Virus record (IMG/VR): IMGVR_UViG_3300038393_002131
Length of the DNA: 63,714 bases
Direction: 5' to 3' (one strand)
Source of the DNA: a virus
Taxonomy: Duplodnaviria; Heunggongvirae; Uroviricota; Caudoviricetes
Each line of letters starts with the position of its first letter. Positions within the stretch are counted from its first letter, which is position 1. The translations under genes were made by a program, and so were the position numbers. The notes below the pieces were generated by a model that had not been told where the DNA came from, did not search any database, and saw nothing but the letters and a program-made list of their open reading frames with translations. Shown piece after piece: positions 14,443-35,683 of the stretch.

Positions 14443-14478
14443 GAAGGCCCGCCGGGGGAGTAGTCCCGGCGGGCCTTC
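14443..14478. terminator. Bidirectional hairpin between convergent conjugation and head modules
   Basis: GAAGGCCCGCCGGG / CCCGGCGGGCCTTC, perfect 14-bp stem, 8-nt loop. Confidence 0.75.
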
Positions 14479-14496
14479 CGCGTGTGGTCGTGCTCG

Positions 14497-16647: not shown

Positions 16648-16673
16648 TCCCGTTCCTCCCCATCGTTGATGTC

Positions 16674-16711
16674 GGGGAGGAACGTGCCTGTGTCAGGGGG
16701 CTTGTGTCGCG
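16674..16711 (-). promoter_or_regulatory. Putative late promoter (protease)
   Basis: CGCGACACAAG-N14-CACGTT-N7, then a short leader with GGAGG SD. Confidence 0.65.
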
Positions 16712-16902
16712 TCCTTCTTCGCCAGCGCCATCCGCGCCTGCGACAGGCCACGGTTCCAGAAGCGGAACTTGACCCGGTCACCGACGCCACCGTTGGGGTT
16801 GTACGGGTTGTCGGCGCCGGTCTTGCCGGCCACGGCGGCGTCGCGGCCCTCGAACAGGGCACGCCACGCACTGACGCGGTTGATGCGCTGCACCTCAGCC
16901 AC
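16693..16902 (-). CDS. Rmf/CrpP-like small protein
   Basis: RALFEGRDAAVAGKTGADNPY...FWNRG resembles the ribosome modulation factor pattern (G..AG..G....CPY.....W..G); GTG start overlaps upstream gene. Confidence 0.55.
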   Translation of the reverse strand: MAEVQRINRVSAWRALFEGRDAAVAGKTGADNPYNPNGGVGDRVKFRFWNRGLSQARMALAKKDATQAP

Positions 16903-17554: not shown

Positions 17555-17591
17555 GCGAGGGAGAGTGCCTGCCGTGTGGCCTTGCGTCGCG
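17555..17591 (-). promoter_or_regulatory. Putative late promoter, leaderless
   Basis: CGCGACGCAAG-N13-CACTCT-N7-ATG17554. Confidence 0.65.
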
Positions 17592-17860
17592 TCGTGGCGG
17601 GCTCGGGGGCGCCGCCGTCCGACGGAACCCCCGAGCCCACTTCCGCCCGATCAGCTCGGGCGGCTCTCCATTGGCTGCACGGCTGCCGTGGCTACACCGC
17701 GCGCCCGCCCGCCGCACCTGTGCGGACGACGAGCGTTGGTACCAGTCAATGCCGCCGAGAAAGCCCGGGTGGCGGCCCCCGTCAGGCTCCTACCGGTGTG
17801 CACCAGCCGGGGTGTGCCTGACCGCGCATTTGAGCATCGTCGAGAGGCTTGGCGGGGGTA

Positions 17861-17895
17861 GGTAGGGCCCACGCTGGGGGAGCGTGGGCCCTACC
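17861..17895 (-). terminator. Hairpin downstream of the giant gene
   Basis: GGTAGGGCCCACGCT-ggggg-AGCGTGGGCCCTACC, perfect 15-bp stem, 10 nt after the stop. Confidence 0.75.
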
Positions 17896-17904
17896 GTCAA
17901 CTCG

Positions 17905-20900
17905 TCAGGCGGCGAGGTCCTCGTCGAGGTCCATCAGGTCGCGCAGCTTCCGCATCGGCACTCCCGCGTCCGCGGCCGCCCGGACCCGGTTCCGCAGCTC
18001 GCTACGGCGGTCGGCCGAAGCCTCGCCGCGCCACCCGTCGAGGAAGCCCTGACGGACGCCGAACACGAACGAGAGCACCGACCGGACCACGGCCATCGCG
18101 ATCTGACCCAGCAGCGTCACGATCTGCGCGATGAGCCCCGGGCGGTAGGACCGCTCGGCCGCCAGGCGACGGGCCGTCTCAGCGCGGCGGCGAGCCGACC
18201 GGGCGAGGATCGCCTCGGCCATCTTCCGCAGCTCCTTCTCGGCCTGCGCGGCGTCGAGGTTCTTCGCCTGGACCTTCGCCACCAGCGCGTCGACCTCCTT
18301 GAGCAGGTCCTCCGTGAGGGAGTCGACCTCCGCGCGGACCTCCCGGTTCGTCGCGTCCTGCTGCTTCGACGGGTTCGGGCGGGTCACGCCGCGGCCGGCG
18401 CGCTTCTCCCGTCGGCCGTCACGCGACCACCCGTCGGGGCGGGCGGCGCCGTCGTCGACGACGCGGAGCACACGGCCCGAGTGGGTCGTCGCCCGGTCGT
18501 TGTCGTCCCACACGACCGTGACGTCACGGCCACGGGTGAGCACGACGCGTCCGCGGCGGCCGCTGTTGTCCTCGACGAGCGAGCCGGGGAACAGACCGAA
18601 CTCGCCGTCACGGTCGGCCGGGATCCGGTTCGGCATGCGGTTGTTCCGCACGTCGAGCCGGTTCTTGTCCAGCTGCCAGCCAGCGTCGGGCACCTCGTGC
18701 ATGTCGGGGCGCGGCGCGAGGGCCACCATGGCGTCCAGCGGCACGTAGACCGTGTGCTGGGCGCCGAGCCCGTCCATCTCGTCGGAGACGGTGACGGCCA
18801 TCATGTCCTCGCCCGGGCCGTCCTCGCCCGGCTTGCGGACGAGCACCGGCATCGGGTCGTTGGTGAGGAACCCCGCCGCGGAGGCCGGGTTGCCGTCGCC
18901 GTCGATGCCGTCGACGTGGGCGTAGTCGCCGATCTGCAGCGAGCCGGGGGTGGCGTACGCCGCCTGCATCCCGGCGGCCTCCGTCTCCTCGAGGGGGACG
19001 TCGACCTTGTCGCCGTCGACGGTCTTGGTGACCTTCTTCTTCGACCCGTCGGCGTTGGTGTGCTTCGCCTTGGCGGCCTCGCGGGCGAGGTCCCCTGCGG
19101 AGCGGTCACCGCCGACCCGTGCGCCGGCAGGCTTGGCCGACGGGGTGACGTCGAGGCTGCCGGAGCCGTTGAGGCGCGGCTCGCCGTCGACCTCGGGCGC
19201 CTCGGGGGCGTCCGCCGCGTCCGGGGTGGCCGGCGCCTGGGCGGGCGTCGGGACCTCGTCGGCGGGCTGCACGAGCTCGTTGCGCGGCATCGGCGTGCCC
19301 GAGGGCAGACCGTCGTCGACGACGTCCGGCGTGGAGAGCCCGTCGGGGATGGGCGTCTCCGCGTTCGGCTCCGTCGGCATGACGGGGTCCGGGGTGGGCG
19401 TCATGTCGACGGGCTCGGCCATGCCGATCGGGTCGACCGAGCGCACGTCGGCCGCGTCGAACTCGTCGACGAGGTCGGGGGTGAGCTCGAGGCCGCGGAA
19501 CGTCCCGTCCGGGTTCGCGACCGGGGTGCCGATGTAGAGCTGACCGTCCGCGGTCTGGATCGCGACCTCGTCGACGTTGCCGTCCGGGCCGGGCGTGAGC
19601 AGCGCACGCACCTGCTCCGGGGAGAGCCCGTTGGGGAGGTCCTGACCCATGAACGAGTCGGCCGTGATCGCCTGCGGTCGGGCCGCGGGAGCGACCTCCG
19701 GGGTGGTGGTCGTCCCCGGCGTCGACGGTGCCGAATCCGCCGACGCCGGGGTGTTCGGGGCGCTCGGGGCCGACGGGGTCGGCTCCGAGACGTTGGGCGT
19801 GACGTCGGGGGTGACGTCCGCCTGCGGGGCGTCGACAGCCTCGGGGGCGTCGACGCGCGTCAGGATCGTGTCGCGCGGCATGTCCTCGCCGGTCACGGGG
19901 AACCCGCGGTCGGCGCCGGCGTACTGGAACCGGATGAAGTTGGGGTTGGTCGTCACCGACACCACGCGGACGGGCTCGCCCGTCTCGGGGTGCAGGACGA
20001 TGTCGCCCTTCTTGACCTCCTCGGCGGCCACGGGGACGCGGGTCGCGCCCTCGGGGACGTCGACGACCTGCAGCGGCCGGTTCGTCATGACGTCGTTGAT
20101 CGGCGTGCTGGCCGGGGCCGGGGCGTCCACCGTCGGGGCCGACGGCGCGTCAGCGACGCCACCGGTCGGCGCGGGGCCGTCCGAGACGTTGCCGGGCGCC
20201 GGGACACCCGCGGGGGCGTCCGGGGTGGCCGTGGCGGGCGCGCCGCCAGCTGCCGGGGCCTCCGCGACACCGCCCTGCTCGTCACGGGCCGCGTCGAGGG
20301 CGCGCTTGCGCTCCCACGACTCGCCGTAGCCGCGCATCTTCTGCGGGATCTCACGGACGGGCACCTTGCGGGCCGTGCCGGTCGGGCCGTACTCCACCGC
20401 CGACACGCGCGGCTTGCCCTCGCGGGCGCCGGGCACGACGTTGACGTACAGGCCGCCAGCGGAGAACGGGTCGCGGACGCTGATGCCGACCTTGCCGTCC
20501 TCGGCCGGGGTGACCTCGACGGGCGCACCGGCGGCGCGGCCCTTCGCGGCGTAGCCCTGGGCGCGGTCCCACACCGCCAGGGCGATGTGCTCCGGGCGGG
20601 CGTCGTCGACGTTGACCGACTCGGCCACGGCGCCGGGGATCGGGTCGCCGAACGCCTTGTCGATGGCGGCGTTCTCGGCGTCGATCTCCTCCGGCGTCAT
20701 GTCGGCGCCGTCCTTGCCCGAGGCCGGGGTCAGGTGCTCGGCGTCGACGGGGCGGGCCTCGTCGGCCTGCTCGAGCGCCTTCTCGACGTCGGCCTTGTCG
20801 GCGATGGTCGGCTCCGGCTTCCGGGTGTCGACGCCACCGGCGGGCAGGTGCCCGTTCGGGACGTCGGCGTTCGGGGCGTCCGGGGCGCCGGCGGGGCGTC

Positions 20901-23900
20901 CCTTGCGGCCGTCGTCGCTCGAGCCCTGGCCCTGGCCGGGCATGTCGGGCATGTGCAGGTGCGGCAGGCCGAGGTGCGGCCGGTTGTGCCCGCCACGGTT
21001 GCGGCGGCGCCTGTTCCGGCGGTTCCGGCGGCGGCGGCGACGCTCCTCGCGGTCGTCGTCCTCCTTCTTGCGCTCGTCCTCGGACAGCTGGTCGCGGCGG
21101 TGCTTCTCGCCGCGGGCCTTGTCGCCCTCCTCGTCGTCGCGCTCGGCGGCGTCGTCGAGCTCACGGTCGGTCATGTCCTCGACACGGTCCCGGTCGTCGC
21201 GCTCGTCGCGGTCGTTGCGGTTCTCGTCGTCGGCGCGGTCCTTCTCCGACTCGCCGTCTTGCTCGCCCGTGGCGGACTCGTCCCGACGCTTGCGACGGTC
21301 GGCGTCCTCACGCTTGCGGTCCTCGTCGGACAGGTGCGCACGGCGACCCATCTCGGCGTTGAGGGCCTCGAGCCACGCCTCGTCGTTGGTGTGACGGCCG
21401 ACCAGACCCTCAAGCTCGGTGAGCTCGTCGTCGTGCAGGTCGTCCGTCGAGTGGTGACGGAGGCCCTTCGGGTCGTGCTCGGCCGCGAGGGGCGTCGACT
21501 CGGCGAGCTTGTCGCCGCGCTTGATCGCGCCGGGGATCGAGTAGTGCTTCATCCCGTGCTTGCGCATCTCGTCCGGGGTCATCCCCCAAATGGCGAGGGT
21601 GGCCTCCTCCGGCACGTACTTCGCGATGGTGTTCGCCGGGACGCCGTTGCCCTCCATGAGGCGCTTCTGCATCTTCGGCGGCAGGCCGGAGATCGCGTCG
21701 ACGCCGGACATCTTCCCGCTGGTGTTCTTCGGGTCGAAGAACCGGTTCAGGATGGCCTCGTTGTCGCGGCGCAGCTGGTCGAGCACGTCGGCGTCGGCCT
21801 GCGGGAGCGGGTCCCGCGTCGGGCGGCCCGTGCCCCACCCGTCACTGGTGGTGTCGGGCTCGGCCGCGGCGTCGAGGATGTCGCCGACCTCGGCCTCCTG
21901 CTGCTCGTCGAACAGGCCAGCAGCCTCGCGGCGGTCCATCTCGGCCTCGAGCGCCCGGTAGACGTCGGGGTCCTCCATGTTGGCCGGGTCCATCGCGGCC
22001 GCCATGATCTCGTCGTTCGACATGGCGGTGAAGTCCGGGCCGGCCGGCGCCGCGGGGGCGACGTCGTCGACGGTGACCTCGGGCACGTCCTCCGGCTCCG
22101 GGGCGACCGCGGCGGCCTGCTCCGGCGTCGTGACGGGCTCCTGGGTCGGGATCTCCTCGCCGGTCTGGCGCGGGCCGTAGGTGCCGCCGTAGTCGCGACG
22201 CTCACGCTCAGCCTCGGCGTCGCGCAGGCCGATCCAGTTGCCGCGGCCGCCGTGCTGCTCGTTGTCGCGCTTCGTCTCGGCGGCGATGCGCTGCGCGAGC
22301 TCCTCGTCGGAGATCTCCGTCAGGTGCGACCCGTCGCGCTCGGACAGCTCGCCGCGGACGGTGCGCAGACGCTCCTCGACCCGCTGGGCGAGGGTCGTGT
22401 CGGGCGCGTCGGCGAGGATCCGCGAGGCGTCCTCAAGGGTCGCCAGCTCGGCCTCGAGCTCGCTCGAGTGCTTGCGGTCGTCGGCCAGTCCGCCCCGGTA
22501 GTTCAGGCGGGACAGCTTGTCGCCGTACTTGTTCCACGCCTCGGCCTCGGCCCGCATCTGCGGGCCCATCTTCTCGACGTAGCGCGCCGCCTCGATGCCG
22601 GAGCGGTGCGACTGCGGCCACGCGCCGCCCGGCTCCCAGCCGCGCAGGCTGTAGGTGTTGATGTCGGTCGGCTCCATGCCCGGCTCGGCGAGCCGGTTGA
22701 GGATCGTGCCGTTCCACCAGTCGCCGGACGACTCACTCTTGAACGAGTCCTCCTTGGCGGTCGTTCCGATGAGACGGTGCGGCCACATGACGAGCGTCGC
22801 GTCACCGTCGCGGTAGGCGCGGGCGCCGGCGCGCTCGATCCACTGGTGCTCGGGCAGGTCCTCACCGAGGGGGAACCGCTCGAGCGCGTCACGCTTGGCG
22901 CGGGCGTTGAGCCAGTCCGACATGAGGCTCGCCCGGTCCACGCCGGAGGCGCCGCGGGAGTCCCACGTCCCGTCGGGCTGCAGCGTGTAGTACCGCTGCA
23001 TGCCGTGCTGGCCCTTGCCGATCGCGAACCCGATGGTGCCGTCGGACAGGACGGTGCCCATCTCCGGGTCGCGGGTGAACTTCGGCACGCCCTGCGTGGT
23101 CGTCAGGTCCGGGGTGCCCTTCGGCATCGACTGCTTGACGACCTCGCCCTGGTGGGCGGGGGCGTCGGCGACGGCGCGACGGTTCAGCTCGGAGTCGCGG
23201 TGCTCGGCCAGCGCGTCCTTGAGGGTGTAGCCGCCGCGGTGACCGACGCCGAACCAGTAGCGGCGCACCGAGTCGTCCTTGCTCCACTCGTTCGCGTCGT
23301 AGGCCTGGATCGGCTCGCCGACCTCGTTGCCGTCGGGGTCGATCAGCGTGGCCGACATGCCGTCGTCGGCGATGCGGGCCTTCCAGCCCTCACCGGCGTC
23401 GACGATCTGGCCGGCGTCGGTGATGCCCTTGGCGACCTGCGGGGCCTCCGGGGTGACGTCGGCGGCGGGCGCCTCGGGAGCGGCCGGGGCCTCCGGCGCG
23501 CTCGGGGCGCTCGGCTCGTCGACGATCTCAGCCGTCTTGGGGTCGACCTTGACCGTCTCCGGCGCCTTCGGGGCCTCGGGGGCAGCGGCCTTCGGCTTGG
23601 AGCCGGCCGTACCGCCGTTCTCATCGGTGTGCTCGAACACCCACGCGAGGGAGCCCGGGTCGAGCTCCTTCGCGGCGCGCGTCACCGCGACGTAGTCGAG
23701 GCGCAGCTCCTCCGGGTCGGGGAACGTCACCGAGCCGTCGTCCTCGTCGATCTTCGGCTGCGGGAAGTCGCCGCCGATGCGGACGCGGTCCCACTCGAGG
23801 CCCTTGGCCTTGTGCGCCGTCGAGATCGTGACGTCGGGCTTCTCCGCGGTGCCGCCGAGGAGTTCACGCAGACGGGCCAGTGGCCGCTCCTGCGCGTCAC

Positions 23901-26900: not shown

Positions 26901-29900
26901 CCGGGGCCGCCTCGGGGGCGTCCTCGACGATCTCGGCCGTCTCCGGGTCCACCTTGACGGTGTCGGTCGGCTTCGGGGCCTGCTCGCCCCGCTCACGCGG
27001 CGTCGAGGACGAACCCGACGACGAGGTGCGGCCGCGGGCCTTCTTCACCCGGGCGGCGACCCGCTCGCGGATCTCCTTCCGGTCAGCGTCCGGCTCGAGC
27101 GTGGCGATCGTGTCGGTGACCGAGTCGATGAGCCGCTCGTCGGAGGAGTCGGGCAGGTCGGCCAGGGCGTTGTCGATCTGCTCGTCGGCGCGGGCGTGCC
27201 ACGCCCGGCCCTTCGTCTTGCGCTGGTAGAACTCCGCGGCCTTCGCGATCTGCTCGATGGGCGGCAGCATGTCGGCCGGCAGCGGCATCTCCGGGTCGAC
27301 GATGTCGAGCGCGGAAGCCGCGTCGTCCTTCGCCGCACCGACGATGTCGTGGTACTCCTGCTCGAGCGCCTTGAGCTCGTCCTCGTCGAGGCCCTGCGAC
27401 TGGCCCGCGATGACACGGTCGACGACCTCGGCGAGCTCCTTGGCCTTGCGCAGGTCGTCCGTCTTGCCGAACTCCTTGCCGGCGGCCTCGCGGGCCTGCT
27501 CGGCGCCGCGCTCGGCCTTCTCGACGTCGGTCTTGGCGCGCTGGTACGAGTCCTCGAACCCGCGGCCCTGACGCTCAAGCGACGCCACCGGCATCGCCAG
27601 CTGGGCGTCCTTGGACTTGGGGTCCAGGTCGCGCAGCTCGATCGGGGTGGCGCGGCCCTCAAGGCCCTCGAACGCGACCTCGAACCAGTTGCGGCTCGAG
27701 CCCTCCATAACGTCGGAGTGCACGTAGCGGGAGCGCAGCTTCATGCCGCCGAGCTCGCCGAAGTCGGCCCACTCGGTGCTCTGGTTGCGGTTCGGCAGGT
27801 TGGCGTACTGCTCGGCGAGGACGCGCTTGATCTCGGCGTCGGCCGCCTGGCGGGCCTTCTCGGTGTTCTTGTCGAACACCTTGCCGCGGACGGTCATCTT
27901 GAACTTGTCGCCCGTGGTGTCCTGCCACTGCTCGGCGGCCTTCTGCAGCTTGGGCAGGTACGGCTTGAGCACGTCGGCCTTGTGCTGCAGACGCGCCACC
28001 GCGGCCGAGGCCTCGGCGCGGTTCGTGTTGTGCGTCTTGAGGTCGGCGGTCAGGTCGAGCAGGCGCGCGTCCGCGGTCGCCTTGCGCATCAGCCACGGGT
28101 TGCCCGCAGCCAGCGCGACGATCTCGGAGGCCTGCAGCTCGTCGGAGGACACGTCCTCCATCTGGCGGACGTTGCGGTCGCCCTTCATGGCCGCGTTGAT
28201 GAACTTCTGCTTGCGGGCGACGCCCTGCCACATGTACGAGTCGAAGGTGCCCTCGGTGACGTACTGGAAGATGTCGACCGCGGCGTTCTGGTTGCCCTGA
28301 CGCAGAGCGCGACCGTCGCGCTGCTGCAGGTCGGCCGGCCGCCACGGCACGTCGAGGTGGTGCAGGGCCACGACGCGGTCCTGCACGTTGGTGCCCATGC
28401 CCATCTTCGACGTGGAGCCGACGAGCACGGCGATGCGGCCCTCGCGGGCGTCTTGGAACAACTGGGCCTTCTGGACGTCGTCCTTGGCCTCGTGGATGAA
28501 CCGGATCTGGTCGGCCGGCACACCCTTGGCGATCAGGTCGTCCTTGAGCTGCTGGTAGGGCGACCACTTCGGCGTCGCGTCGAACGGCACGACCTCGAGA
28601 CGGCGCCCGCCGCCCTCCTCGGGGAACAGCGCGTCGAGGACGTCGGCGACCATCTCGGCCTTGGCGGTGTCCTCGTCCCACTCCGAGGTGTCGACCTCGA
28701 GGTTGTCGGCGATCTGCTCGATGTCCGAGGCCTTCATGTTGCCCATGAGGCGGTTGGCCTCGGCGCGGGCCGCGGTGCGGTCCATCGTCCCGGCCTCGAC
28801 GGCGTCGTGGATCGGGGCCAGACGCTCGGCGAGCTTGTTGACCTTCGGCGACGTCGGGTCCTTCGGCGTGCCGAGGTCCATGAACACGAGCTGCAGCGCA
28901 CCGGCCTGCTCGTGCAGGTCGTCGGAGTCGGCCCGCTTGTAGAGGTTGCCGCGGTTGCGCTGGTAGGTGGAGGTGATCTGGTTGGCGGCCGCCTGCAGCT
29001 TCGGCGACACCTCACCCTCGGGCCCACCGACGAGACGCATGTCCAGGGCGGCCTTCCGGCCGTCGCCGGAGATCTTGAGGAGGTTGTCGTCCTTCGGGTC
29101 GACACCGCCGCCCTCGACGGCCTTGGCGCGCTCGGCGAGGTCGGCGATGTAGTCGGCCTGCGCGTCGGACCGCTTGACCATGATCGTCTTGGGCTTGCCG
29201 CCGCGCAGCTCGGGGATCGGGAGGTCGGCGTCCATCTTGACGTCGGCGAACTCGCGGAACATGCCGAGCATCTCGGGCAGGTTGGAGAACTTCGCGAACC
29301 GGGCCTTGGCCTTGAAGTTGGCGCCGGTGATGTCGACCTCGGGGGTGGCGACGACCTCACCGAAGGTCGCGGCCCACCGGTCGAACGAGTTCGTGCCGGT
29401 CTTTTCGAGCAGGTCGGGGCGCATGAACCGGGTCATCGTGTAGGCCTCGGTCATGCTGTTCGACAGCGGCGTCGCCGTCGCGAACGTGCCGACCGGGCGG
29501 GTGACGCCCTTCTTCTCGCGCAGGAAGTCCAGCTTCATGTGGATGTCCTGCGCGCGGTTCGCGCCGGTGATGTTGGCGCCCGGGATGCGCGAGGGCGTCA
29601 TGAGGTTCTTGAACAGGTGGGCCTCGTCGACGAACAGGTAGTCGATGCCGGTCTGCTCGAACGTGACGCCGCCCTTCTCGCGGGCCGTCTCGATCTTGTC
29701 GCGGTACTTCTGCTCCATGTTGAGCAGGGAGGACTCGAGGCGCTTCACGCCGCGGCCGTCCTCACCGTGGAGGGCCTTGCGCGCCTCGAGCTCGGCCCGC
29801 TTCTCGGCGAGCTCCTTCTCGAGGTACCGCTCCATCTGGTCCGGGCCGACGGGCATCAGCTCGAACGCGGAGTGGGTGAACACGACCGCGTCCCAATCGC

Positions 29901-32900
29901 CGGAGGCGGCCTTGGCGGCGAACGCCTCACGCTTGCGGCGGGTGTCGGCCGCGCCCGAGCCGGCCAGGTCGCTCTTGCGGGCGACGAGGACCTTGGCGTT
30001 CGGGAACGCCTTGATGAACTCGCGGGTGTACTGCTCGAGCATGTGGTTGGGCACGACGTGCGCCGGCTTGTTGGCGATGCCGAGCTGGCGCAGCTTCATC
30101 GACGAGGCCTGCATGACGAGCGTCTTGCCGAAGCCCACGTCGTGCGCGAGCAGCGTCGTCGGCTGGGTGATCGCGCGGGAGACGCCGGCGTGCTGGTGCG
30201 GCCGCAGCGAGAACGCGTCGGACAGGCCGTGCACGGTGACCCGGCGGGCGCTGTAGTCGGCGTCCGCGAGGAAGTTGAACATCTCGTTGTAGCGGCCGAC
30301 GAGCCGGTCGCGGCGGTCCTCGTCGGACCACACCCACTGCCGGAACTCCTCGAGCATCTGCTTGGCCTTGGTGAGGGCCTCGCGGGTCTTGGCGTGGTCG
30401 GTGTAGGTCTTGCCGTCGACGGTGTACGTGACCTTGATCGGCGACTGCTGGATCACCGACTGGAAGATCTTGCCGGCGCCCCACAGGACCTTCGGGCGGC
30501 CTTCCTTCGTCGTGTCGGTGTCGGACAGCACCGACCACTTCTCGGCCGCGAACGAGGTCACGGGGACCTCGACGTCCCAGCCGGACCCGCCGCCGGGGTT
30601 GAGCACGAGCGCGCCGGGCGCCTCGAACTTCTCCCGGGCGAACGCCGTCAGGTCCTCCTCGCTCATCCATGCGGCACCGGGGCGCACGTCGATCTCGTGG
30701 GACTGAATGTCGGCCGGGACGCGCGCCTCGAGGAAGGTGACGTTCTTCTCGAACGACGGGTCGTGCTCAGCCAGGGCGCGCGCGACCTTGAGCTTGCCGC
30801 GGACGTCGCCGGCGCCGTACGCCGTGACGTCGACGTACGTGTCGAGCTCCGGGTCCTTGAACACGTGCCCGTCGACGGCCTTGAGCGCGGCGTCCTCGTC
30901 GGGCAGGCCCATGAGGGCGGCGATCTTGGAGAGGTTGACCTCGCCGGACTGGTCCTGCGACAGCATGACGGCGTCGACCGGGTCGTCGGTGCGGGTGATG
31001 ACCTTGGCCGGGGAGACGGTGCGGCCCTCGAAGATCGCGGCCTTCTTCGCGATGCCCGTCTCGGGGTTGTAGTCCTCGAGCGCGCCGGTGGTGATGAAGC
31101 CCATGCGGTCGGACTTCCACACGGCCGGGATGCCCGCGATGGCGCGGCGCTTGGCGTTCGGGTCGTCGGCCTTCGGCTCGGAGAACCGGACGCGGTTGAT
31201 CGGGCCGAACGTGCCGACGTAGTGGTCGTACTCGTCGTTGAGCTGCTTGCGGAGCTCGGCCATGAGCGGGGTGTCCTCGTCGTGGGACACCTCCTCCTCC
31301 ATGAGCGCGGTGCGCAGGTCGCGCAGGCGCATCAGGCCGAGGACCTCCTCGGTGCGGGACTTCGGCACCGTCAGCTCGACCGGCTTGCCGTTCTCGAGGA
31401 TGGTGAAGCCCTCGCCGTTGGGCGACAGGTCGATGTAGCCCTCGTCCTTGCCGTCGATGCTCTTGCGGCGGCGGATCGCGTCGTCGACGGTCGTTGGCAG
31501 GCCCTCGCGGGGCGTCATGCCGAGGCGCTGCTTGTGGGCGTCGGCGGCGATGTTGCGCAGGGCGTTCCGCAGCTGGCCGGGCAGCGCGTCGAGGTCCTTG
31601 TTGACGACGGTCAGCGCGTCGTCGGCGCCGTACATCGACTTGCCGACCTCGATGTCACCGAGGACGTTCTCGGGGTGGCGGGCGAAGTACTCGTTGACCG
31701 TCCAGTCCTTGCCGGACTTGGTCTTGATCTTCTTGCGGCCGACGAACTTCTCGCCGCGGGGACGCTCACCGTCGAGGCGGCGACGGAACATCAGAATGTC
31801 CGTGACGACGTCGGTGCCGGCCGAGGCCTTGTGGGCGCCGCCGGGCAGGCGGACCGCGCCGAGGAAGTCACCGAGCGACGCCATCTCGTCGCGGCCCTTC
31901 TTCGACGTCTTGTCCATCGAGCCGGACGAGGTCATCACCATGACGAGGCCGCCCGGGCGGACCGCGCGCATCGCCTTCGTGATGAAGTGGTCGTGCATGT
32001 TGAGCCCGGCCTTGTTGCCGCCGGTCGGGTCGTGCAGGACGGCCTCGTGGAACGGCACGTTGCCGATGACGGCGTCCAGGCTGTTCGGCTTGAGGTCGAC
32101 GTTCTGGAACCCGGCCGCCTCGATGTGGGCGTTCGGGTGGAGGAACTGCGACATGGCGGCGGTCGTCGGGTCGAGCTCGACACCGACCATCCGGGCACCC
32201 TTGGGCGCCATGCCGATGAAGTTGCCGATGCCGGAGCCCGGCTCGAGCACCGTGCCGTCCTCGAACCCGAGGTCCTGCATCGCCTCCCACATCGACTGCG
32301 TCATGTGGGCGGCCGTGTAGTGGGCGTTCAGCGTCGTGCGCGACGCGGCCGCGGCCTCCTTCTGGTCAGGCAGCAGCTCGGCGAGCTCGGCGCGCTCCTT
32401 GGCGAACTCCGGCTTGTCCTCGTCGAACATCTCCGGCAGCGCACCCCACGAACCCCACTTCGCGAGGACCTTGCGCTCGTCCTCGGTCGCGGGCCGGTTC
32501 TCGGCCTGCAGGGTGCGCAGCACGCGCAGCGCGTCGAGGTTGGCGCGGGCACGGGCCTTCTTCCCGCTGGGGGAGAGGTCCTCCTGGCTCGTGGCCTGCC
32601 ACGGGCCAGGGACGTCCGCGCCGGCGTCCTTGAACGACGGCGCGGCACCGTTGGGAGCCTCGGGGGTGGGCTCCGCAGCGGCCGCTACGGCGTCGGCGTC
32701 TCCGCGGGCGGCGTCGTCGGCTCGTCCACCGGCAGCTCGTTCTCCCGGGCGTCCGGCTCCGCTGGCAGGAACACCTCCTGCTCGAGCACCTCGGCCTCCG
32801 CCGTCCTGAACGCCCACAGCATCAGGTCGCGGCGCTCCTGCTCGGTCGTCGGCTGCGGCTTCTCCGCGGCCGCCAGCTGCTCCGCGCGGCGCTGCACCAG

Positions 32901-35646
32901 CGTCTCCACCCTCGCTCCGAGCTCCTTGAAGAACGTCTCCGGGTCGGCCAGCTGGGCGGTCGCCTCGGGACGGAACGTCGTCCAGTGCTTCCGGGCGGTC
33001 TGCGCGTACGTCTGCGCTGTCACGGGTCTCTCCTGCGGTGTCGGGGGTGCTCGGGGCGCTGGCCGGGCTCTCCTTGAGCGTACCGGCGGCGGGGGTCTTG
33101 TCGCTCTCGCCGCGCGGCGCCGGGGCGCTGGGGGCGTCGGCCTTCGGCTTCTCGATGAGGTACTGCGGGTCGATGTCGAACTCGGCGCCGTTGTCGGTGT
33201 TGCGGACGGCGACCTTGCCGTTGCGGCGCGTGTCGACGACCTCCCACTCGCCCTCCGCGCCGCCACCGGGGCGGTTGGGGTCGACGGTGAAGGTCTTGCC
33301 CTTGCTGGCGGCCATGAAGGCGCGCTGCGGGGCCTGGTTGGGGTCGAGGCCGTCGGCTGCGGGCGTGGCCTCCATCGACTGCTTCTCGGTGAGTCGACGG
33401 TTCTCGCGGTTGACGAAGTCGACCGGGTCCTCACCCTTGCGGGCGGCCTGCAGCACGTCCCATTCGTCGACGTCCTTGGGCTCCCAGCCGGCGTCGTCGA
33501 GGGCCTTGTCGACCTTCGCGCGGTAGTCGCGGTACTCGGGGCTGTCGGTGGGCTCGGCCCAGCCGTTCTCCTCGCGCGGGTCGGCGAACGGGTCGCGGGC
33601 CGAGGAGGGGGTGTCGGCCTTCGGCGCGGCCGCGGTCGAGCGGTCGGGCGTGCCAGCGTTGACGTCGGCGGCCTTCGGGTCGGAGCCCTTGGGCTGCTCG
33701 TCGCCACCCTTGGCGGCGGCCTCGACCTCGCGGGCGGCCTTGCGCTTGGCGAGCCGGTTGCTGTCGGAGGCGGCGTCGTAGCGGGCAACCGCGTCACGGA
33801 CCTCGGGACGCTCGTCGCCGCGGTGCTTGTCGACGGTGGCGTTGTTGCGGGTGAGCTCGTCGGCGCTGCTCTGCTCGGCGGCGGCCGCGGACGCGTCCTT
33901 CTCCTTGCGGAACTCGATCGGGCGACTGTCGCGCTCGGGGGCGTCGCCCGGCTTCGCGGCCTCGGCGGGCTGCGCCGGGCGCTTCGTGTCGGCGGGCTTC
34001 GCCGCGGCCGCGGGACGGGCGGGCTCGGCCGGCTTCGCGGCGGGGGAGTCGGCCTTGCGGGCCTCGTCGAGCTTCTCCGTGAGGTCGTCGACCTTGGCGG
34101 TGAGCTCGTCGATCTTCTCCTCGACGGGCTTGGGGGCCTCCGGGGTGTCGACCTTCGCGGCGGCCTGCTGCGGCTCGTCGGCGACGGCGGCGATGTCCTT
34201 GCGGGCGTCGTCGCGGGCGGCCTTGGACTTGGCCTTGAGGTCGGCGGCGGACGCCGAGGAGGCGAGGCGCTCGAGGTGCGAGCCGATGACCTCGTTGTGC
34301 GCGACGCGGGCCTTGTCGGGGTTGCGCTTGTCGGCAGCGCGGACCTTCGCCACGCGGTTCTTGATGATCTCGGCGGCCTTGGCGCGGTCGCCGCCGACGG
34401 CGTCAAGGGTCTGCTTCCACAGCGCCTCAGCGGTGGCCTCGGCGTGGCGGGTCGAGCCGCCCGCGTTGGACTTGCCGGCGCGGGCCGCCTTGCGGTCGGC
34501 GTCGATCTTCTTCGCCTGGGCGACGAACTCCTCACGGGAGCGGGCCCGGATCTCCTTGCCGTGGGCCTGGCCGATCCAGCCCTTGCCGCCGGCGGTGTCC
34601 AGCGACGACGTCGTCGAGGCGACGAGGCGCCCGTCGGCGTCGTAGAGCTCCTGCTGCGGCAGGGCGTCCTTGTCGGCCTCGTCCTTCACCGTGGCGGTCG
34701 TCCAGCCGTCGCCGGCGTCAGCGTGGCCCTTGGGGAGCTTGCCCTTCTTGGCACCCTTGACGGGGCTCGGGTCGTAGGCGGCGTCGAGCTCCTTGGCCTT
34801 GGCGATCGCGGTCGGCTTGTCGACGAGGGTCTTGGAGCCGTTGTGGCCGGCGACGGGCATGCCGTCGTCGGCGCGGAACACCTGCCACTTGCCGTCGACG
34901 CGGGCGACGATGTGCTCGCCCTCGGGGGACAGCTGCGCGGACTCGAGCTTGTCGGCGAGGGCGGCCCGGTCCGGGTTCACCGGGGCGTCGGGGTCCTCGG
35001 GCTTGCGGTCCTCGGCCTTCCAGTGGGCCTTGACCTCGTCGATGGACTCGAACTGGTCGCGGACGATGGTGGGCTGCTTGCGGCCGCGCTGGTCGGGCGC
35101 GTCGGCCTCGACGTCGTCCTTGCCGTCGTCCGCGAAGTCGGGCTCGGGCCCGTCCTTGAACCCGTTGGGGGTGGTGTCGAAGTCGGGCTCGTCGTGGTCG
35201 TCGTCGGCGTTCAGGCCGTCGCCGCGGCCCGGGTGCTCGTCGCGCAGCCGGTCCTCGGCCATGACCAGCGCGCGCGCCTTGCGGGTGCCGTCGTCCTTGA
35301 TGGGGCGGCCACCGTTGGGGCGCTTGACCATCGTGAGCCGTGCGGCGGGCTGCACGTTGCGCGTGCCGTCGGCCATGCGCAGCTCGACCCGACCGTTGCC
35401 GAGGGAGCGGACGACGCGGCCGCGGCCGCCGCCCCACACCTGGGCGATGCCGCCCGTCTCGATGAACCGTCCGCGCGAGTCACGCGGGTGCAGCGCGGAG
35501 TTCCACCGGCGCCCTCGCGTGTCGATGATGATGCCGTGGCCGCCGACGTGGGCGGAACGTCGAGCGGAGCGCATGAGGGACTTGCCCTCGAACGCCTCCT
35601 TGAACGCGGCATGCAGTGCGGACAGGGTCGAGTAAGGCTTCGGCAT
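17905..35646 (-). CDS. Giant (5913 aa) DarB-like protein: N6-MTase + SNF2 helicase + UvrD-like SF1 helicase + SH3-like repeats
   Basis: Single open frame with GC3 bias. MTase EPGSGIGNF and GNVPF; SNF2 AHDVGFGKT, VDEAH, GMGTNVQ, QRDGRALRQGN; SF1 AKAGAGKT, VDEAQD, SWRYG, STAHKAKGLEW. N-term WNSALHPRDSRGRF. Confidence 0.85.
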   Translation of the reverse strand: MPKPYSTLSALHAAFKEAFEGKSLMRSARRSAHVGGHGIIIDTRGRRWNSALHPRDSRGRFIETGGIAQVWGGGRGRVVRSLGNGRVELRMADGTRNVQPAARLTMVKRPNGGRPIKDDGTRKARALVMAEDRLRDEHPGRGDGLNADDDHDEPDFDTTPNGFKDGPEPDFADDGKDDVEADAPDQRGRKQPTIVRDQFESIDEVKAHWKAEDRKPEDPDAPVNPDRAALADKLESAQLSPEGEHIVARVDGKWQVFRADDGMPVAGHNGSKTLVDKPTAIAKAKELDAAYDPSPVKGAKKGKLPKGHADAGDGWTTATVKDEADKDALPQQELYDADGRLVASTTSSLDTAGGKGWIGQAHGKEIRARSREEFVAQAKKIDADRKAARAGKSNAGGSTRHAEATAEALWKQTLDAVGGDRAKAAEIIKNRVAKVRAADKRNPDKARVAHNEVIGSHLERLASSASAADLKAKSKAARDDARKDIAAVADEPQQAAAKVDTPEAPKPVEEKIDELTAKVDDLTEKLDEARKADSPAAKPAEPARPAAAAKPADTKRPAQPAEAAKPGDAPERDSRPIEFRKEKDASAAAAEQSSADELTRNNATVDKHRGDERPEVRDAVARYDAASDSNRLAKRKAAREVEAAAKGGDEQPKGSDPKAADVNAGTPDRSTAAAPKADTPSSARDPFADPREENGWAEPTDSPEYRDYRAKVDKALDDAGWEPKDVDEWDVLQAARKGEDPVDFVNRENRRLTEKQSMEATPAADGLDPNQAPQRAFMAASKGKTFTVDPNRPGGGAEGEWEVVDTRRNGKVAVRNTDNGAEFDIDPQYLIEKPKADAPSAPAPRGESDKTPAAGTLKESPASAPSTPDTAGETRDSADVRADRPEALDDVPSRGDRPAGRPGDVLQGARSEGGDAGAAPRGAAGGRGEAAADDRAGAPRPDAVGVQDGGGRGARAGGVPASGAGRPGERAAGGRADDAARGDADAVAAAAEPTPEAPNGAAPSFKDAGADVPGPWQATSQEDLSPSGKKARARANLDALRVLRTLQAENRPATEDERKVLAKWGSWGALPEMFDEDKPEFAKERAELAELLPDQKEAAAASRTTLNAHYTAAHMTQSMWEAMQDLGFEDGTVLEPGSGIGNFIGMAPKGARMVGVELDPTTAAMSQFLHPNAHIEAAGFQNVDLKPNSLDAVIGNVPFHEAVLHDPTGGNKAGLNMHDHFITKAMRAVRPGGLVMVMTSSGSMDKTSKKGRDEMASLGDFLGAVRLPGGAHKASAGTDVVTDILMFRRRLDGERPRGEKFVGRKKIKTKSGKDWTVNEYFARHPENVLGDIEVGKSMYGADDALTVVNKDLDALPGQLRNALRNIAADAHKQRLGMTPREGLPTTVDDAIRRRKSIDGKDEGYIDLSPNGEGFTILENGKPVELTVPKSRTEEVLGLMRLRDLRTALMEEEVSHDEDTPLMAELRKQLNDEYDHYVGTFGPINRVRFSEPKADDPNAKRRAIAGIPAVWKSDRMGFITTGALEDYNPETGIAKKAAIFEGRTVSPAKVITRTDDPVDAVMLSQDQSGEVNLSKIAALMGLPDEDAALKAVDGHVFKDPELDTYVDVTAYGAGDVRGKLKVARALAEHDPSFEKNVTFLEARVPADIQSHEIDVRPGAAWMSEEDLTAFAREKFEAPGALVLNPGGGSGWDVEVPVTSFAAEKWSVLSDTDTTKEGRPKVLWGAGKIFQSVIQQSPIKVTYTVDGKTYTDHAKTREALTKAKQMLEEFRQWVWSDEDRRDRLVGRYNEMFNFLADADYSARRVTVHGLSDAFSLRPHQHAGVSRAITQPTTLLAHDVGFGKTLVMQASSMKLRQLGIANKPAHVVPNHMLEQYTREFIKAFPNAKVLVARKSDLAGSGAADTRRKREAFAAKAASGDWDAVVFTHSAFELMPVGPDQMERYLEKELAEKRAELEARKALHGEDGRGVKRLESSLLNMEQKYRDKIETAREKGGVTFEQTGIDYLFVDEAHLFKNLMTPSRIPGANITGANRAQDIHMKLDFLREKKGVTRPVGTFATATPLSNSMTEAYTMTRFMRPDLLEKTGTNSFDRWAATFGEVVATPEVDITGANFKAKARFAKFSNLPEMLGMFREFADVKMDADLPIPELRGGKPKTIMVKRSDAQADYIADLAERAKAVEGGGVDPKDDNLLKISGDGRKAALDMRLVGGPEGEVSPKLQAAANQITSTYQRNRGNLYKRADSDDLHEQAGALQLVFMDLGTPKDPTSPKVNKLAERLAPIHDAVEAGTMDRTAARAEANRLMGNMKASDIEQIADNLEVDTSEWDEDTAKAEMVADVLDALFPEEGGGRRLEVVPFDATPKWSPYQQLKDDLIAKGVPADQIRFIHEAKDDVQKAQLFQDAREGRIAVLVGSTSKMGMGTNVQDRVVALHHLDVPWRPADLQQRDGRALRQGNQNAAVDIFQYVTEGTFDSYMWQGVARKQKFINAAMKGDRNVRQMEDVSSDELQASEIVALAAGNPWLMRKATADARLLDLTADLKTHNTNRAEASAAVARLQHKADVLKPYLPKLQKAAEQWQDTTGDKFKMTVRGKVFDKNTEKARQAADAEIKRVLAEQYANLPNRNQSTEWADFGELGGMKLRSRYVHSDVMEGSSRNWFEVAFEGLEGRATPIELRDLDPKSKDAQLAMPVASLERQGRGFEDSYQRAKTDVEKAERGAEQAREAAGKEFGKTDDLRKAKELAEVVDRVIAGQSQGLDEDELKALEQEYHDIVGAAKDDAASALDIVDPEMPLPADMLPPIEQIAKAAEFYQRKTKGRAWHARADEQIDNALADLPDSSDERLIDSVTDTIATLEPDADRKEIRERVAARVKKARGRTSSSGSSSTPRERGEQAPKPTDTVKVDPETAEIVEDAPEAAPARPEAPSAPEAPSAAAEAPSARPAEPKADEPTLVVDPATAEVVDEKPAAPAAPEAPAAEERPLVDAGAYDSDAMAGQTMLGGDDLVPGGEDFMLTQEAPTPKAPTAPAAPVREADDLFDTTGDAPLVDKTPTTTRPAMSIKPGDKVKGGDGQLHTVTEVDPRRSDVLITSVDADGKSSTDSYSPDEHLDVAVPDAPAASTPDAPSRPTPARPYHPDNQPADMETVLTPVTEVQEGDILPGKGKVVGKGTTSRGQVFLVLDNGEGTIGPRSFNPDATVDVWKPKAGNAPEAPKAPDARGPYHPDARPEHMESVPTAANRVQLGDVLPGNGKVTDKGMTTNGRVQLTFDDGKGGTRTQTFNPNTTVRVWKDKIAPVAAGDGGRDGGDRTPDAPATPDEPELPGPAGMVTTEERPYNTPIHDIAADFDMSTLSDEELAELRDHRFADNGFWTGRAYKRINDEITRREQASTPEAPTSDDLPDPTDERVPDPVEVPTPAAAPAAEAAAKAKSPEAQRVRGAIAGEKHAPTEQQGDIYEAAAVDGKNVIVEAKAGAGKTSTLEGLARRIAELHPDAKILYAAFNKSVQLEAEGRMPSNVETRTGHSLAWNFVGRKITDKFGKSGQLSNAKDVARHLGITDDLGELTPEQQAKAIQKAIGQYVLSADDNIMGKHFPQSVRSQLNGAQEARLVAQARRAWEDIKDPKGRLRVSQDDFRKMWALARPDLSKAGSGNRRAASILFVDEAQDTPPVLAKVFADQKMQKVIVGDSDQAIYGFAGATDYLSKAEGDVRLPLDKSWRYGPAIADAGNRFLQLLGSKERAVGGGKEGKIVEGMKDADGVLVRTNGGLLAAIEEELGRGRTVGVPKGTKTELESLIESAGYLRGERSKPWKGMHPDLEPYNSWAEVMQEAAKGDDPKISMIARLVDRYGIDGMEDLVSQVTEPADDALAGVQIERDDHRMSIGGNTWALNEAVKKATGGEGLSSLGFRFRKNESGKGGTWEVAGDRDAQERPLARLRELLGGTAEKPDVTISTAHKAKGLEWDRVRIGGDFPQPKIDEDDGSVTFPDPEELRLDYVAVTRAAKELDPGSLAWVFEHTDENGGTAGSKPKAAAPEAPKAPETVKVDPKTAEIVDEPSAPSAPEAPAAPEAPAADVTPEAPQVAKGITDAGQIVDAGEGWKARIADDGMSATLIDPDGNEVGEPIQAYDANEWSKDDSVRRYWFGVGHRGGYTLKDALAEHRDSELNRRAVADAPAHQGEVVKQSMPKGTPDLTTTQGVPKFTRDPEMGTVLSDGTIGFAIGKGQHGMQRYYTLQPDGTWDSRGASGVDRASLMSDWLNARAKRDALERFPLGEDLPEHQWIERAGARAYRDGDATLVMWPHRLIGTTAKEDSFKSESSGDWWNGTILNRLAEPGMEPTDINTYSLRGWEPGGAWPQSHRSGIEAARYVEKMGPQMRAEAEAWNKYGDKLSRLNYRGGLADDRKHSSELEAELATLEDASRILADAPDTTLAQRVEERLRTVRGELSERDGSHLTEISDEELAQRIAAETKRDNEQHGGRGNWIGLRDAEAERERRDYGGTYGPRQTGEEIPTQEPVTTPEQAAAVAPEPEDVPEVTVDDVAPAAPAGPDFTAMSNDEIMAAAMDPANMEDPDVYRALEAEMDRREAAGLFDEQQEAEVGDILDAAAEPDTTSDGWGTGRPTRDPLPQADADVLDQLRRDNEAILNRFFDPKNTSGKMSGVDAISGLPPKMQKRLMEGNGVPANTIAKYVPEEATLAIWGMTPDEMRKHGMKHYSIPGAIKRGDKLAESTPLAAEHDPKGLRHHSTDDLHDDELTELEGLVGRHTNDEAWLEALNAEMGRRAHLSDEDRKREDADRRKRRDESATGEQDGESEKDRADDENRNDRDERDDRDRVEDMTDRELDDAAERDDEEGDKARGEKHRRDQLSEDERKKEDDDREERRRRRRNRRNRRRRNRGGHNRPHLGLPHLHMPDMPGQGQGSSDDGRKGRPAGAPDAPNADVPNGHLPAGGVDTRKPEPTIADKADVEKALEQADEARPVDAEHLTPASGKDGADMTPEEIDAENAAIDKAFGDPIPGAVAESVNVDDARPEHIALAVWDRAQGYAAKGRAAGAPVEVTPAEDGKVGISVRDPFSAGGLYVNVVPGAREGKPRVSAVEYGPTGTARKVPVREIPQKMRGYGESWERKRALDAARDEQGGVAEAPAAGGAPATATPDAPAGVPAPGNVSDGPAPTGGVADAPSAPTVDAPAPASTPINDVMTNRPLQVVDVPEGATRVPVAAEEVKKGDIVLHPETGEPVRVVSVTTNPNFIRFQYAGADRGFPVTGEDMPRDTILTRVDAPEAVDAPQADVTPDVTPNVSEPTPSAPSAPNTPASADSAPSTPGTTTTPEVAPAARPQAITADSFMGQDLPNGLSPEQVRALLTPGPDGNVDEVAIQTADGQLYIGTPVANPDGTFRGLELTPDLVDEFDAADVRSVDPIGMAEPVDMTPTPDPVMPTEPNAETPIPDGLSTPDVVDDGLPSGTPMPRNELVQPADEVPTPAQAPATPDAADAPEAPEVDGEPRLNGSGSLDVTPSAKPAGARVGGDRSAGDLAREAAKAKHTNADGSKKKVTKTVDGDKVDVPLEETEAAGMQAAYATPGSLQIGDYAHVDGIDGDGNPASAAGFLTNDPMPVLVRKPGEDGPGEDMMAVTVSDEMDGLGAQHTVYVPLDAMVALAPRPDMHEVPDAGWQLDKNRLDVRNNRMPNRIPADRDGEFGLFPGSLVEDNSGRRGRVVLTRGRDVTVVWDDNDRATTHSGRVLRVVDDGAARPDGWSRDGRREKRAGRGVTRPNPSKQQDATNREVRAEVDSLTEDLLKEVDALVAKVQAKNLDAAQAEKELRKMAEAILARSARRRAETARRLAAERSYRPGLIAQIVTLLGQIAMAVVRSVLSFVFGVRQGFLDGWRGEASADRRSELRNRVRAAADAGVPMRKLRDLMDLDEDLAA
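23660..25340 (-). other. Domain within giant ORF: UvrD/Rep-like SF1 helicase
   Basis: PTEQQ Q-motif, EAKAGAGKT, FVDEAQD, VIVGDSDQAIYGF, SWRYG, STAHKAKGLEWDRV, LDYVAVTRA. Boundaries approximate. Confidence 0.85.
28180..30230 (-). other. Domain within giant ORF: DarB/SNF2-type SF2 helicase
   Basis: LRPHQ, LAHDVGFGKT, YLFVDEAHLFKN, ATATPLSNS, GSTSKMGMGTNVQ, DVPWRPADLQQRDGR. Boundaries approximate. Confidence 0.9.
31660..32580 (-). other. Domain within giant ORF: N6-adenine DNA methyltransferase (DarB-type)
   Basis: ANLDALRVL, WGSWGA, TLNAHYT, VLEPGSGIGNF, VGVELDP, IGNVPF, HDHF, RLPGGAH. Boundaries approximate. Confidence 0.9.
32685..33023 (-). CDS. TnpV-like small protein nested out of frame inside the giant ORF (112 aa)
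   Basis: CAGGAGAGACCC SD before GTG33023, TAG at 32685-32687. Almost all codons are GC3 in this frame. Sequence TYAQTARKHWTTFRPEATAQLADPETFF..LG..AEAEVLEQEVFLP. Confidence 0.7.
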   Translation of the reverse strand: MTAQTYAQTARKHWTTFRPEATAQLADPETFFKELGARVETLVQRRAEQLAAAEKPQPTTEQERRDLMLWAFRTAEAEVLEQEVFLPAEPDARENELPVDEPTTPPAETPTP

Positions 35647-35683
35647 GGGCGGGACTTTCTATGGCTCGACGGCTTGTGTCGCG
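35647..35683 (-). promoter_or_regulatory. Putative late promoter, leaderless (giant gene)
   Basis: CGCGACACAAG-N13-GAAAGT-N7-ATG35646. Confidence 0.65.

Follow-up and report, generated by a model that had tools for sequence, protein, structure and literature searches.

The Giant Gene and Its Domains

The DNA analyzed here, referred to below as the window, is a stretch of 63,714 nucleotides from a virus of the class Caudoviricetes (IMG/VR record IMGVR_UViG_3300038393_002131), and the subject of this work is a giant open reading frame (ORF) on its minus strand at positions 17905–35646. The frame runs from ATG to TGA over 5,913 codons (17.7 kb) and encodes a protein of 5,913 amino acids (aa) and 637.5 kDa, with an isoelectric point of 5.0 and no cysteine. 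A preliminary description made from the letters of the sequence had placed an N6-adenine methyltransferase (MTase), an SNF2 helicase and a UvrD-like superfamily 1 (SF1) helicase in this single frame, and the frame from ATG to TGA, the domain matches and the intact motifs confirm it.

The DarB-type N6-adenine MTase lies at about aa 1026–1400 (31447–32571, minus strand, as are all parts of the giant), with motif I EPGSGIGNF at aa 1135 and motif IV NVPF at aa 1196. It is followed directly by the SNF2/SWI2 helicase at about aa 1812–2451 (28294–30213), whose motifs I, II and VI read GFGKT (aa 1838), DEAH (aa 2007) and QRDGRALR (aa 2442). Such an order is that of a DarB-like MTase–helicase dyad. The PHROGs family phrog_10089, annotated as 'DarB-like antirestriction', aligned with aa 818–2751 (27394–33195) in two pieces with E values of 4.6e-120 and 1.8e-252, and the DarB-like identity proposed earlier stands on this match together with the DarB-type NVPF motif. 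The third enzyme is a UvrD/Rep-type SF1 helicase at aa 3410–3996 (23659–25419), which matched the helicase family phrog_1967 and carries AGAGKT at aa 3464, DEAQD at aa 3653, GDSDQAIYGFAGA at aa 3677, HKAKGLE at aa 3945 and YVAVTRA at aa 3985. In its motif III the usual Arg is replaced by Ala; the Walker A, DExQ, GDxxQxIYxFxGA, motif V and motif VI signatures of SF1A are present. The Pfam matches of the giant were SNF2-rel_dom, Helicase_C, UvrD-helicase (E = 1.6e-13), AAA_19 and UvrD_C (E = 4.5e-9), and all the catalytic signatures searched for in the MTase, SNF2 and UvrD parts were present and intact. With the three enzymes in one frame of an element that has terminase, portal and prohead protease genes, the giant belongs to the polyvalent proteins.

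Outside these enzymes the chain is less easily described. A conserved N-terminal block (aa 4–529, 34060–35637) belongs to no known family and is 48% identical to the corresponding block of P0006, a full-length relative of 5,840 aa. A highly charged segment with 34 acidic and 32 basic residues per 100 lies at 20947–21246, with a poly-Arg run at aa 4869. The conserved C-terminal module (aa 5270–5909, 17920–19839) shares aa 5559–5746 with gp48 of Streptomyces phage Gilgamesh and includes the sole strongly hydrophobic helix of the protein (aa 5836–5864, 18055–18141). Searches of Pfam, PHROGs and NCBIfam gave no family for aa 1–800, about 2750–3400 and 4000–5913, apart from one weak repeat-like NCBIfam match at about aa 4019–4082, and nothing meaningful was found by PDB sequence searches with aa 1–900, 2780–3440 and 4010–5913. 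No Phage_Mu_F domain was detected by Pfam in aa 1–1000 at E 0.05; judging by the Gilgamesh annotation, a MuF-like part, if present, would belong to the neighbouring portal gene. By eye, the unassigned part of the chain consists of small beta-barrel-like units with Pro/Ala/acidic linkers between them. DNA near-identity searches of phage and plasmid collections revealed no close relative of the giant gene.

Integrity of the Frame

The window has a G+C content of 71%, and two huge frames, one on each strand, overlap at 17.9–38 kb. In the giant frame the G+C content by codon position is 0.72/0.48/0.95, and this coding signature is kept along the entire length except over a nested gene described below. 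The plus-strand frame (17884–37995, 6,703 codons) is longer than the real gene, has a translation rich in Arg, Gly, Val and Leu, and is a pure high-GC shadow of it. Since the minus-strand frame reads as protein and the plus-strand frame is its shadow, the gene lies on the minus strand and the coordinates of the preliminary description are right. A shadow of this length could mislead gene callers.

In the Logan assemblies, contigs from four independent runs (soil and rhizosphere) span long pieces of the giant gene, and three of the four runs bridge the critical region at 32.6–33.1 kb. No sequencing indel fusing separate genes, on the absence of which the earlier reading of the frame had been made to depend, was found: the only insertions in the independent contigs are two, of 3 nt each, at 27025 and 33593. 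These insertions are strain variants of other soil metagenomes inside linkers of the giant, and they leave the frame intact. Among relatives, versions of 4,400–6,700 aa are kept in the same slot after the portal gene. The 17.7-kb frame is thus a real single gene.

The Nested TnpV-Like Gene

The coding signature changes at aa ~875–987 (32685–33030), where sliding codon-position analysis gave third-position G+C (GC3) of 0.40–0.54 and first-position G+C of 0.94–0.98 in the giant frame, which is the signature of coding in the +1 frame. The GC3 anomaly arises because a gene of 112 codons is nested here on the same strand (32685–33023). It has a GTG start, a Shine-Dalgarno (SD) sequence GGAGAG and a TAG stop, and its bases also encode a linker of the giant rich in Gly, Arg, Ala and Asp. 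The gene is recognized by the GC3 flip, by its homologues and by the AlphaFold2 model of its product.

The homologues of the nested ORF are free-standing proteins, mostly of 90–180 aa, in 167 representative clusters. The Pfam family TnpV (PF14198) was matched by 7 of 54 aligned relatives (best E = 2e-7), and the window copy itself had no Pfam match. Its model is helical, with a predicted local distance difference test (pLDDT) score of 91, and matches AFDB entries named 'TnpV protein' with a template modelling score of 0.7; a PDB fold search gave no significant match. The nested gene thus resembles TnpV, the small proteins of conjugative transposons, in the PF14198 matches of its relatives and in its helical model, and differs from them in being wholly embedded in another frame of a giant ORF.

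A first scan of viral contigs with the nested protein found no relative, and the relatives were detected by later profile and tblastn searches. The +1 nesting is present in P0006, in a Kitasatospora contig and in the giant of Streptomyces viridifaciens, as well as in 16 of 16 viral contigs with enough sequence whose giants carry the N-terminal tag described below; each of these 16 nested ORFs has an ATG or GTG and an SD-like site. The same nesting was found in the giants of Klebsiella phage LASTA, Vibrio phage VvAW1 and Erwinia phage PEp14 and in the DarB-like frame of Pseudomonas phage Itty13, in which group the nested ORF lies about 700–790 nt before methylase motif I where mapped. Every MTase-bearing relative examined has the nested TnpV-like gene except P1 darB, in which there is no nested ORF. 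In plasmid-like loci the TnpV homologue is a separate gene immediately upstream of the MTase–SNF2 gene, and the methylase frame is open across the homologue.

Could the long frame be an artefact, or several products (an N-terminal protein, TnpV and a methylase–helicase) that merely appear fused because stop codons are rare in DNA of 71% G+C or because of an assembly indel? The codon usage of the linker is indeed non-coding-like, and, for the window alone, 75% of codon shuffles left the giant frame without a stop over the nested gene. However, no stop codon closes the N-terminal part. For the methylase part, start codons are absent all the way from the nested stop (aa 987) to aa 1042, which is already inside the conserved methylase N-terminus. 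In the related viral contigs the giant frame has no stop across the nested gene in 16 cases out of 16, and the third frame has 2–5 stops. Codon shuffles gave probabilities of an open frame of 0.03–0.51 for each contig (0.03–0.08 in several), yet the frame is always open and in the same register; the product of these values is 1e-14 if the contigs are independent, but several of them are close kin. The stop-free giant frame, despite the shuffle expectation, and the absence of a methylase start codon indicate that both frames are maintained. Together with the independent assemblies, concordant but for their 3-nt indels, this largely refutes the artefact, which we regard as highly improbable. We conclude that the giant is read straight through the nested gene, so that the linker is a by-product, and that the TnpV-like protein is very likely made from its own start. 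The nested gene is a well-supported long same-strand overlap missed by public annotations of many phage genomes. In the literature we found no paper describing a nested TnpV-like gene and no functional study of TnpV.

We also considered the nested protein as a counterpart of P1 Ulx and rejected this: Ulx (146 aa) lies downstream of darB and has no similarity to the nested protein, and P1 darB has no nested ORF. Two observations concern annotation. In Prauserella sp. PE36 (7901–8396) and in a second cassette (6980–7609) the methylase frame is open across the free-standing tnpV, with an in-frame ATG upstream in Prauserella, and the annotated methylase starts in such cassettes may lie too far downstream. 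In Itty13 (NC_070969.1) three 'hypothetical proteins' are annotated at 4549–15807 on the strand opposite to the DarB-like frame, which tblastn and the TnpV profile both pick up; the giant gene has probably been annotated on the wrong strand.

The N-Terminal Tag

The alignment of relatives revealed an invariant N-terminal motif, LHPRDSRGRFIETGG, at aa 52–66 (35449–35493). It includes the HPRDSRGRF motif noticed in the preliminary description, which occupies aa 53–61 and does not vary among relatives. In an alignment of 31 sequences with an identity of about 40% elsewhere, 16 columns are invariant. An AlphaFold2 model built with these 31 sequences (pLDDT 85–96) shows a module of aa 47–136 (35239–35508) in which the motif is packed on a five-stranded KOW/SH3-like beta-barrel with a helix. 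The fold matches of this tag module were weak, namely KOW domains in the PDB and, as the best viral match in BFVD, a 1,479-aa Gordonia phage protein; an ESM Atlas feature search with aa 1–140 gave no usable match.

An exact scan of IMG/VR with LHPRDxxGRFxETGG found 34 contigs. In most of these, about 35–40 residues (range 33–194) separate the motif from the stop at which a very long frame opens, and in at least 16 of the 34 this frame also encodes MTase and SNF2. Other UvrD-bearing giants, from organisms of lower G+C content, have looser forms of the motif at their N-terminus, such as LQLRDKNGKFIEMGG or QWRDRKGRWVEMG. Among cultured phages a relative of the N-terminal module was found in Gilgamesh only, and literature searches on the LHPR motif in phages and on Streptomyces phage Gilgamesh returned nothing relevant.

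In some other homologous UvrD-bearing giants the first domain is not the tag. It is an HK97-type prohead protease in three of them (P0254, P0267 and P0270) and a portal in a fourth (P0211). Head-resident proteins can therefore occupy the same position, which suggests a head-loading function for the tag module. When the portal and the tag (aa 25–135) were modelled as a complex the score was 0.01, which is no verdict and counts neither way on binding.

The N-terminal ExK site to which the preliminary description had drawn attention is not special. ExK occurs 20 times in the giant against 25.6 expected, and with this chance-level frequency the copy at aa 20 was rejected as a meaningful cleavage signal. 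Most relatives have LE[VT]K 8–10 residues before WNPxLHPRD, and the window giant and P0006 have IDTR there; judging by the alignment, this conserved acidic-x-basic position could be a processing site. In the Streptomyces zaomyceticus giant (NZ_CP107934.1, 17223–17265) the RefSeq start lies just after the motif LHPRDSKGRFIETGG, which is in frame immediately upstream, so the annotated N-terminus is probably too short.

Cysteine Content

The absence of cysteine from the giant is shared with a number of its relatives. There is none in P0006 (5,840 aa), Gilgamesh gp48 (4,624 aa) and the S. zaomyceticus giant (4,453 aa), or in the DarB-like giants of LASTA (4,433 aa), VvAW1 (3,640 aa) and PEp14 (4,914 aa), and the partial Kitasatospora giant has one in 4,446 aa. 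In plasmid and chromosomal kin without the tag the cysteine content is normal. The S. viridifaciens plasmid giant has 48 cysteines in 12,264 aa, a free-standing MTase–SNF2 protein of Prauserella has nine in 1,910 aa and P1 DarB has nine in 2,255 aa; cysteine makes up 0.7% of the residues encoded by the other genes of the window. Among 102 UvrD-bearing giants, the 32 with the strict tag have 14 cysteines in 165,349 aa, and all 25 giants with at least six cysteines are without any tag. The latter come mostly from large Nocardia, Streptomyces or Actinoplanes replicons, to judge by organism names and contig sizes. The loss of cysteine reflects strong selection, even inside the enzyme domains, and agrees with a chain kept outside the cell and passed out in an unfolded state.

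Genomic Context

The giant gene lies between portal and protease genes, as first described. On the same strand, in the order of transcription, we found the large terminase (38981–40855), the portal (35746–38031), the giant, an acidic gp50-like gene (16895–17554), a small gp51-like stretch (about 16726–16857) and an S78 prohead protease–2H phosphoesterase ('2_5_RNA_ligase2') fusion, which has about 370 further residues (14497–16647). The order from the portal to the protease matches that of Streptomyces phage Gilgamesh. Here, the portal is 51% identical to the Gilgamesh portal–MuF fusion gp46, the protease–2H fusion is homologous to gp52, annotated as 'hydrolase', and the terminase is 72% identical at the DNA level.

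Nine nucleotides after the stop of the giant there is a perfect 15-bp GC-rich, terminator-like hairpin (17861–17895, minus strand; −36.1 kcal/mol, z = −6.0), and none of 200 shuffles was as good. The upstream spacer of the giant, 99 nt long, has no Shine-Dalgarno sequence. It contains the 12-mer GCGACACAAGCC (35671–35682, minus strand), 24 nt before the ATG, with an exact repeat at 16699–16710 before the protease gene; it is a possible, unproven promoter or leader element. The shorter GACACAAG occurs four times, at 16701, 16961, 35673 and 54880, always on the minus strand (1.2 expected), and a minus-strand gene begins 25–55 nt after at least three copies, possibly all four. The alignment of the four upstream regions is not convincing, which leaves a shared promoter unproven. 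A scan of 16000–18500, a stretch downstream of the giant which excludes its upstream spacer, gave no sigma-70-like site. The late-type promoter that had been ascribed to the gene is thus not established, the candidates being the 12-mer and the GACACAAG repeats, whose flanks lack a convincing alignment.

On the plus strand a conjugation-like module (2738–13901) converges on the head operon. It includes an AAA_10/VirB4-like ATPase, an M23 peptidase and an FtsK/SpoIIIE-like translocase with a gamma domain. The giant might accordingly be delivered by conjugation and not in the virion, escorting plasmid DNA into recipient hyphae, a role suggested before for the giant of the S. viridifaciens plasmid. 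In favour of this, the module adjoins the head genes in what is a phage-plasmid with a TraB/FtsK-like translocase and a VirB4-like ATPase, the UvrD-bearing giants described by Iyer et al. 2017 (PMC5512222) are placed in conjugative contexts, and the S. viridifaciens plasmid pKVP1 has a gene like those of type IV coupling proteins beside its giant. However, the window giant belongs to the portal-to-protease operon on the strand opposite to the conjugation genes, and Gilgamesh, which forms plaques, has its giant in the same slot. Tag-bearing giants are cysteine-free and conjugative ones are not, and relatives put a protease or portal at the tag position. We therefore consider delivery by conjugation quite unlikely.

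Relatives and Known Systems

Conservation differs along the chain. Beyond the N-terminal block, identity to P0006 is 35% for the MTase–SNF2 block, 62% for UvrD, 40% for the mid block and 45% for the C-terminal block. In a search limited to giant proteins a homologous UvrD domain was present in 101, of which about half also have the MTase–SNF2 dyad; many are present in RefSeq as 'UvrD-helicase domain-containing protein'. Other cargo among the giants includes ADP-ribosyltransferase, NUDIX, RNase T-like exonuclease and ArdC-N domains.

The polyvalent proteins, the DarB-type MTase–SNF2 dyad and the co-occurrence of UvrD in actinomycete giants were described by Iyer et al. 2017 (PMC5512222), with the S. 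viridifaciens plasmid protein OJH72069.1 (12,242 aa) as the prototype of giants with MTase, SNF2 and UvrD. These have the same three enzymes in one polypeptide of an actinomycete mobile element, so the two-helicase architecture is already known. Of the added SF1 helicase claimed in the preliminary description, the presence with intact motifs stands, and the novelty does not, as dozens of such giants are public besides those of PMC5512222. The pKVP1 giant aligns with the window giant over MTase–SNF2 (28% identity) and UvrD (37–53%) and carries a nested tnpV in the +1 frame too. The window giant is about half as long and differs in its place in a phage head operon after the portal, in its LHPRD tag and in having no cysteine, in contrast to pKVP1, where the giant lies beside conjugation genes and has 48 cysteines and no tag.

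P1 DarB (2,255 aa) has the same NVPF motif IV in an N6-MTase followed by SNF2, and its gene also adjoins the portal gene (prt). In contrast to the window giant it begins directly with the methylase and has no tag module, nested tnpV or UvrD, and it has nine cysteines. Loading of P1 DarB depends on Hdf, DarA, DdrA and Ulx, and DdrB is also listed among the P1 Dar accessory proteins. DarB is a head protein of P1 that acts in cis against type I restriction (PMC5512222).

The DarB-like/PLxRFG giants of Bcep22-type podophages (Bcep22 gp75, JC1 gp69, LASTA, PEp14, VvAW1) form a comparable class within phrog_10089. The giants of VvAW1, PEp14, LASTA and Itty13 are 32–34% identical to the window giant over about 1,600 aa (~80%) of the MTase–SNF2 stretch. 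With lengths of 3,640–4,914 aa, no cysteine and a +1 nested tnpV-like ORF, the Bcep22-type giants are like the one here; they differ in coming from podophages of Proteobacteria, in the position of the gene among tail and ejection genes and in lacking UvrD. JC1 gp69 is virion-associated, with 51 unique peptides detected by mass spectrometry of purified virions (PMC9144972).

The nearest counterparts by position are Gilgamesh gp48, annotated as a 'hypothetical protein' (4,624 aa), and the giant (4,453 aa) of plasmid NZ_CP107934 from S. zaomyceticus NBC_00415, a circular 125-kb plasmid which is another Gilgamesh-like element. Both lie in the same slot after the portal and share with the window giant the N-terminal tag (44% over aa 46–165), a C-terminal segment (36%) and the absence of cysteine, and poly-Arg runs are visible in all three translations. 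Here, gp48 has no recognizable enzyme domain, the S. zaomyceticus giant has a UvrD cassette only and the window giant has both MTase–SNF2 and UvrD, which indicates that the family is a conserved scaffold with inserted enzyme cassettes.

Such variation raises the question of whether the giant is mainly structural, a head 'core' or an ejection conduit whose enzymes are exchangeable passengers of little consequence. Gilgamesh gp48, keeping the tag, part of the C-terminal module and the poly-Arg run with no recognizable enzyme, would suit this, as would the hydrophobic helix near the C-terminus and the varying cargo. The catalytic motifs of three enzymes are nevertheless intact, and UvrD is the best conserved block in the comparison with P0006; both indicate selection on the enzymes, and a mainly structural role appears improbable.

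The enzymes could also serve in the producing cell, where a giant that is not transferred would have a late role such as methylating or repairing progeny genomes ahead of packaging, or would be part of a helicase complex for replication or recombination. Replicating DNA is a substrate on which all three activities, MTase, SNF2 and UvrD, would be of use, and free-standing UvrD-like helicases of large actinophages are 45% identical to the UvrD of the giant. This explanation, unlikely in our estimate, gives no reason for the position in the head module, for the invariance of the tag, for relatives with a fused protease or portal, for the total absence of cysteine or for the beads-on-a-string scaffold that the enzyme-free gp48 also has.

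Possible Role

The best explanation of these observations, and in our view a probable one, is that the giant is a multi-enzyme protein packaged in the head and injected to protect the incoming DNA. An injected anti-defence or DNA-protection protein had been proposed in the preliminary description, and the DarB-like family, the slot in the head module, the exchange of the tag for a protease or portal and the cysteine loss agree with this proposal, in which packaging and injection are still inferred steps. Head synteny and the presence of DarB-like giants in virions point the same way.

In such a scheme the giant would be made with the head proteins in a Gilgamesh-like phage-plasmid of Streptomyces type, and the invariant tag, LHPRDSRGRFIETGG on its KOW-like barrel, would take it into the procapsid. 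Inside the head it would lie next to the DNA until infection, when it would leave through the tail as an unfolded chain. The DarB-type methylase–SNF2 pair might then translocate along the entering DNA and protect it in cis from restriction. The UvrD-type helicase would be a second, single-strand-tracking motor, which could strip bound host proteins or process DNA ends. The small beta-barrel beads with their Pro/Ala/acidic linkers would serve as the scaffold for inserted enzyme cassettes, and the TnpV-like protein from the same locus probably works with the methylase–helicase. The single gene, its domains with their intact motifs, the synteny, the tag, the loss of cysteine and the nested gene are observed; that the giant is packaged, ejected and active against restriction, and what UvrD and TnpV would do, are proposals.

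Several points weigh against a packaged and injected giant. P1 DarB is packaged and yet has nine cysteines, so a protein need not lack cysteine to be packaged. For about 60% of the chain there is no match to a family or a solved structure. The conjugation-like module adjoins the head genes, and the first-described giants with MTase, SNF2 and UvrD sit in conjugative contexts (PMC5512222). The window has no match to the major capsid and tail genes of Gilgamesh, and direct evidence of virion presence comes from P1 DarB and JC1 gp69, not from the giant or Gilgamesh gp48.

The tag, the cysteine purge and the nested tnpV may also be joined in one reading, which we put forward tentatively, as somewhat less probable than its opposite. 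The tag, in the form RDxxG[RK][FW]-x-E-x-GG on a KOW-like barrel, would be a portable head-loading address, for which a fused prohead protease or portal could be substituted. Cargo of this kind would be purged of cysteine even in its MTase, SNF2 and UvrD domains, presumably for storage in the virion and unfolded threading, with non-virion homologues keeping their cysteines. Every DarB-type cassette within a larger frame, in actinomycete phage-plasmids as in Klebsiella, Vibrio, Erwinia and Pseudomonas phages, would have, in the linker ahead of the methylase, an unannotated +1 overprinted gene for a TnpV-like cofactor of the dyad. This three-part reading was absent from the literature searched.

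Implications

The giant is one more, unusually large member of the polyvalent/DarB-like class, and the general picture of phage anti-restriction is thus unchanged. The parts worth following up are the tag, the cysteine purge and the conserved nested gene. The inferred steps are head loading by an invariant tag of 15 residues, ejection of a cysteine-free chain of 0.6 MDa and cis-protection by a methylase with two motors. They are testable because the lineage has a cultured phage, Gilgamesh, and sequenced Streptomyces strains with circular relatives of about 125 kb; relatives of this size are present in S. zaomyceticus NBC_00415 and K. aburaviensis JCM 4613. The nested tnpV ties the unexplained TnpV family to methylase–helicase function. 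Should the tag prove to be a portable loading signal, chosen proteins could be directed into actinophage heads by means of it.

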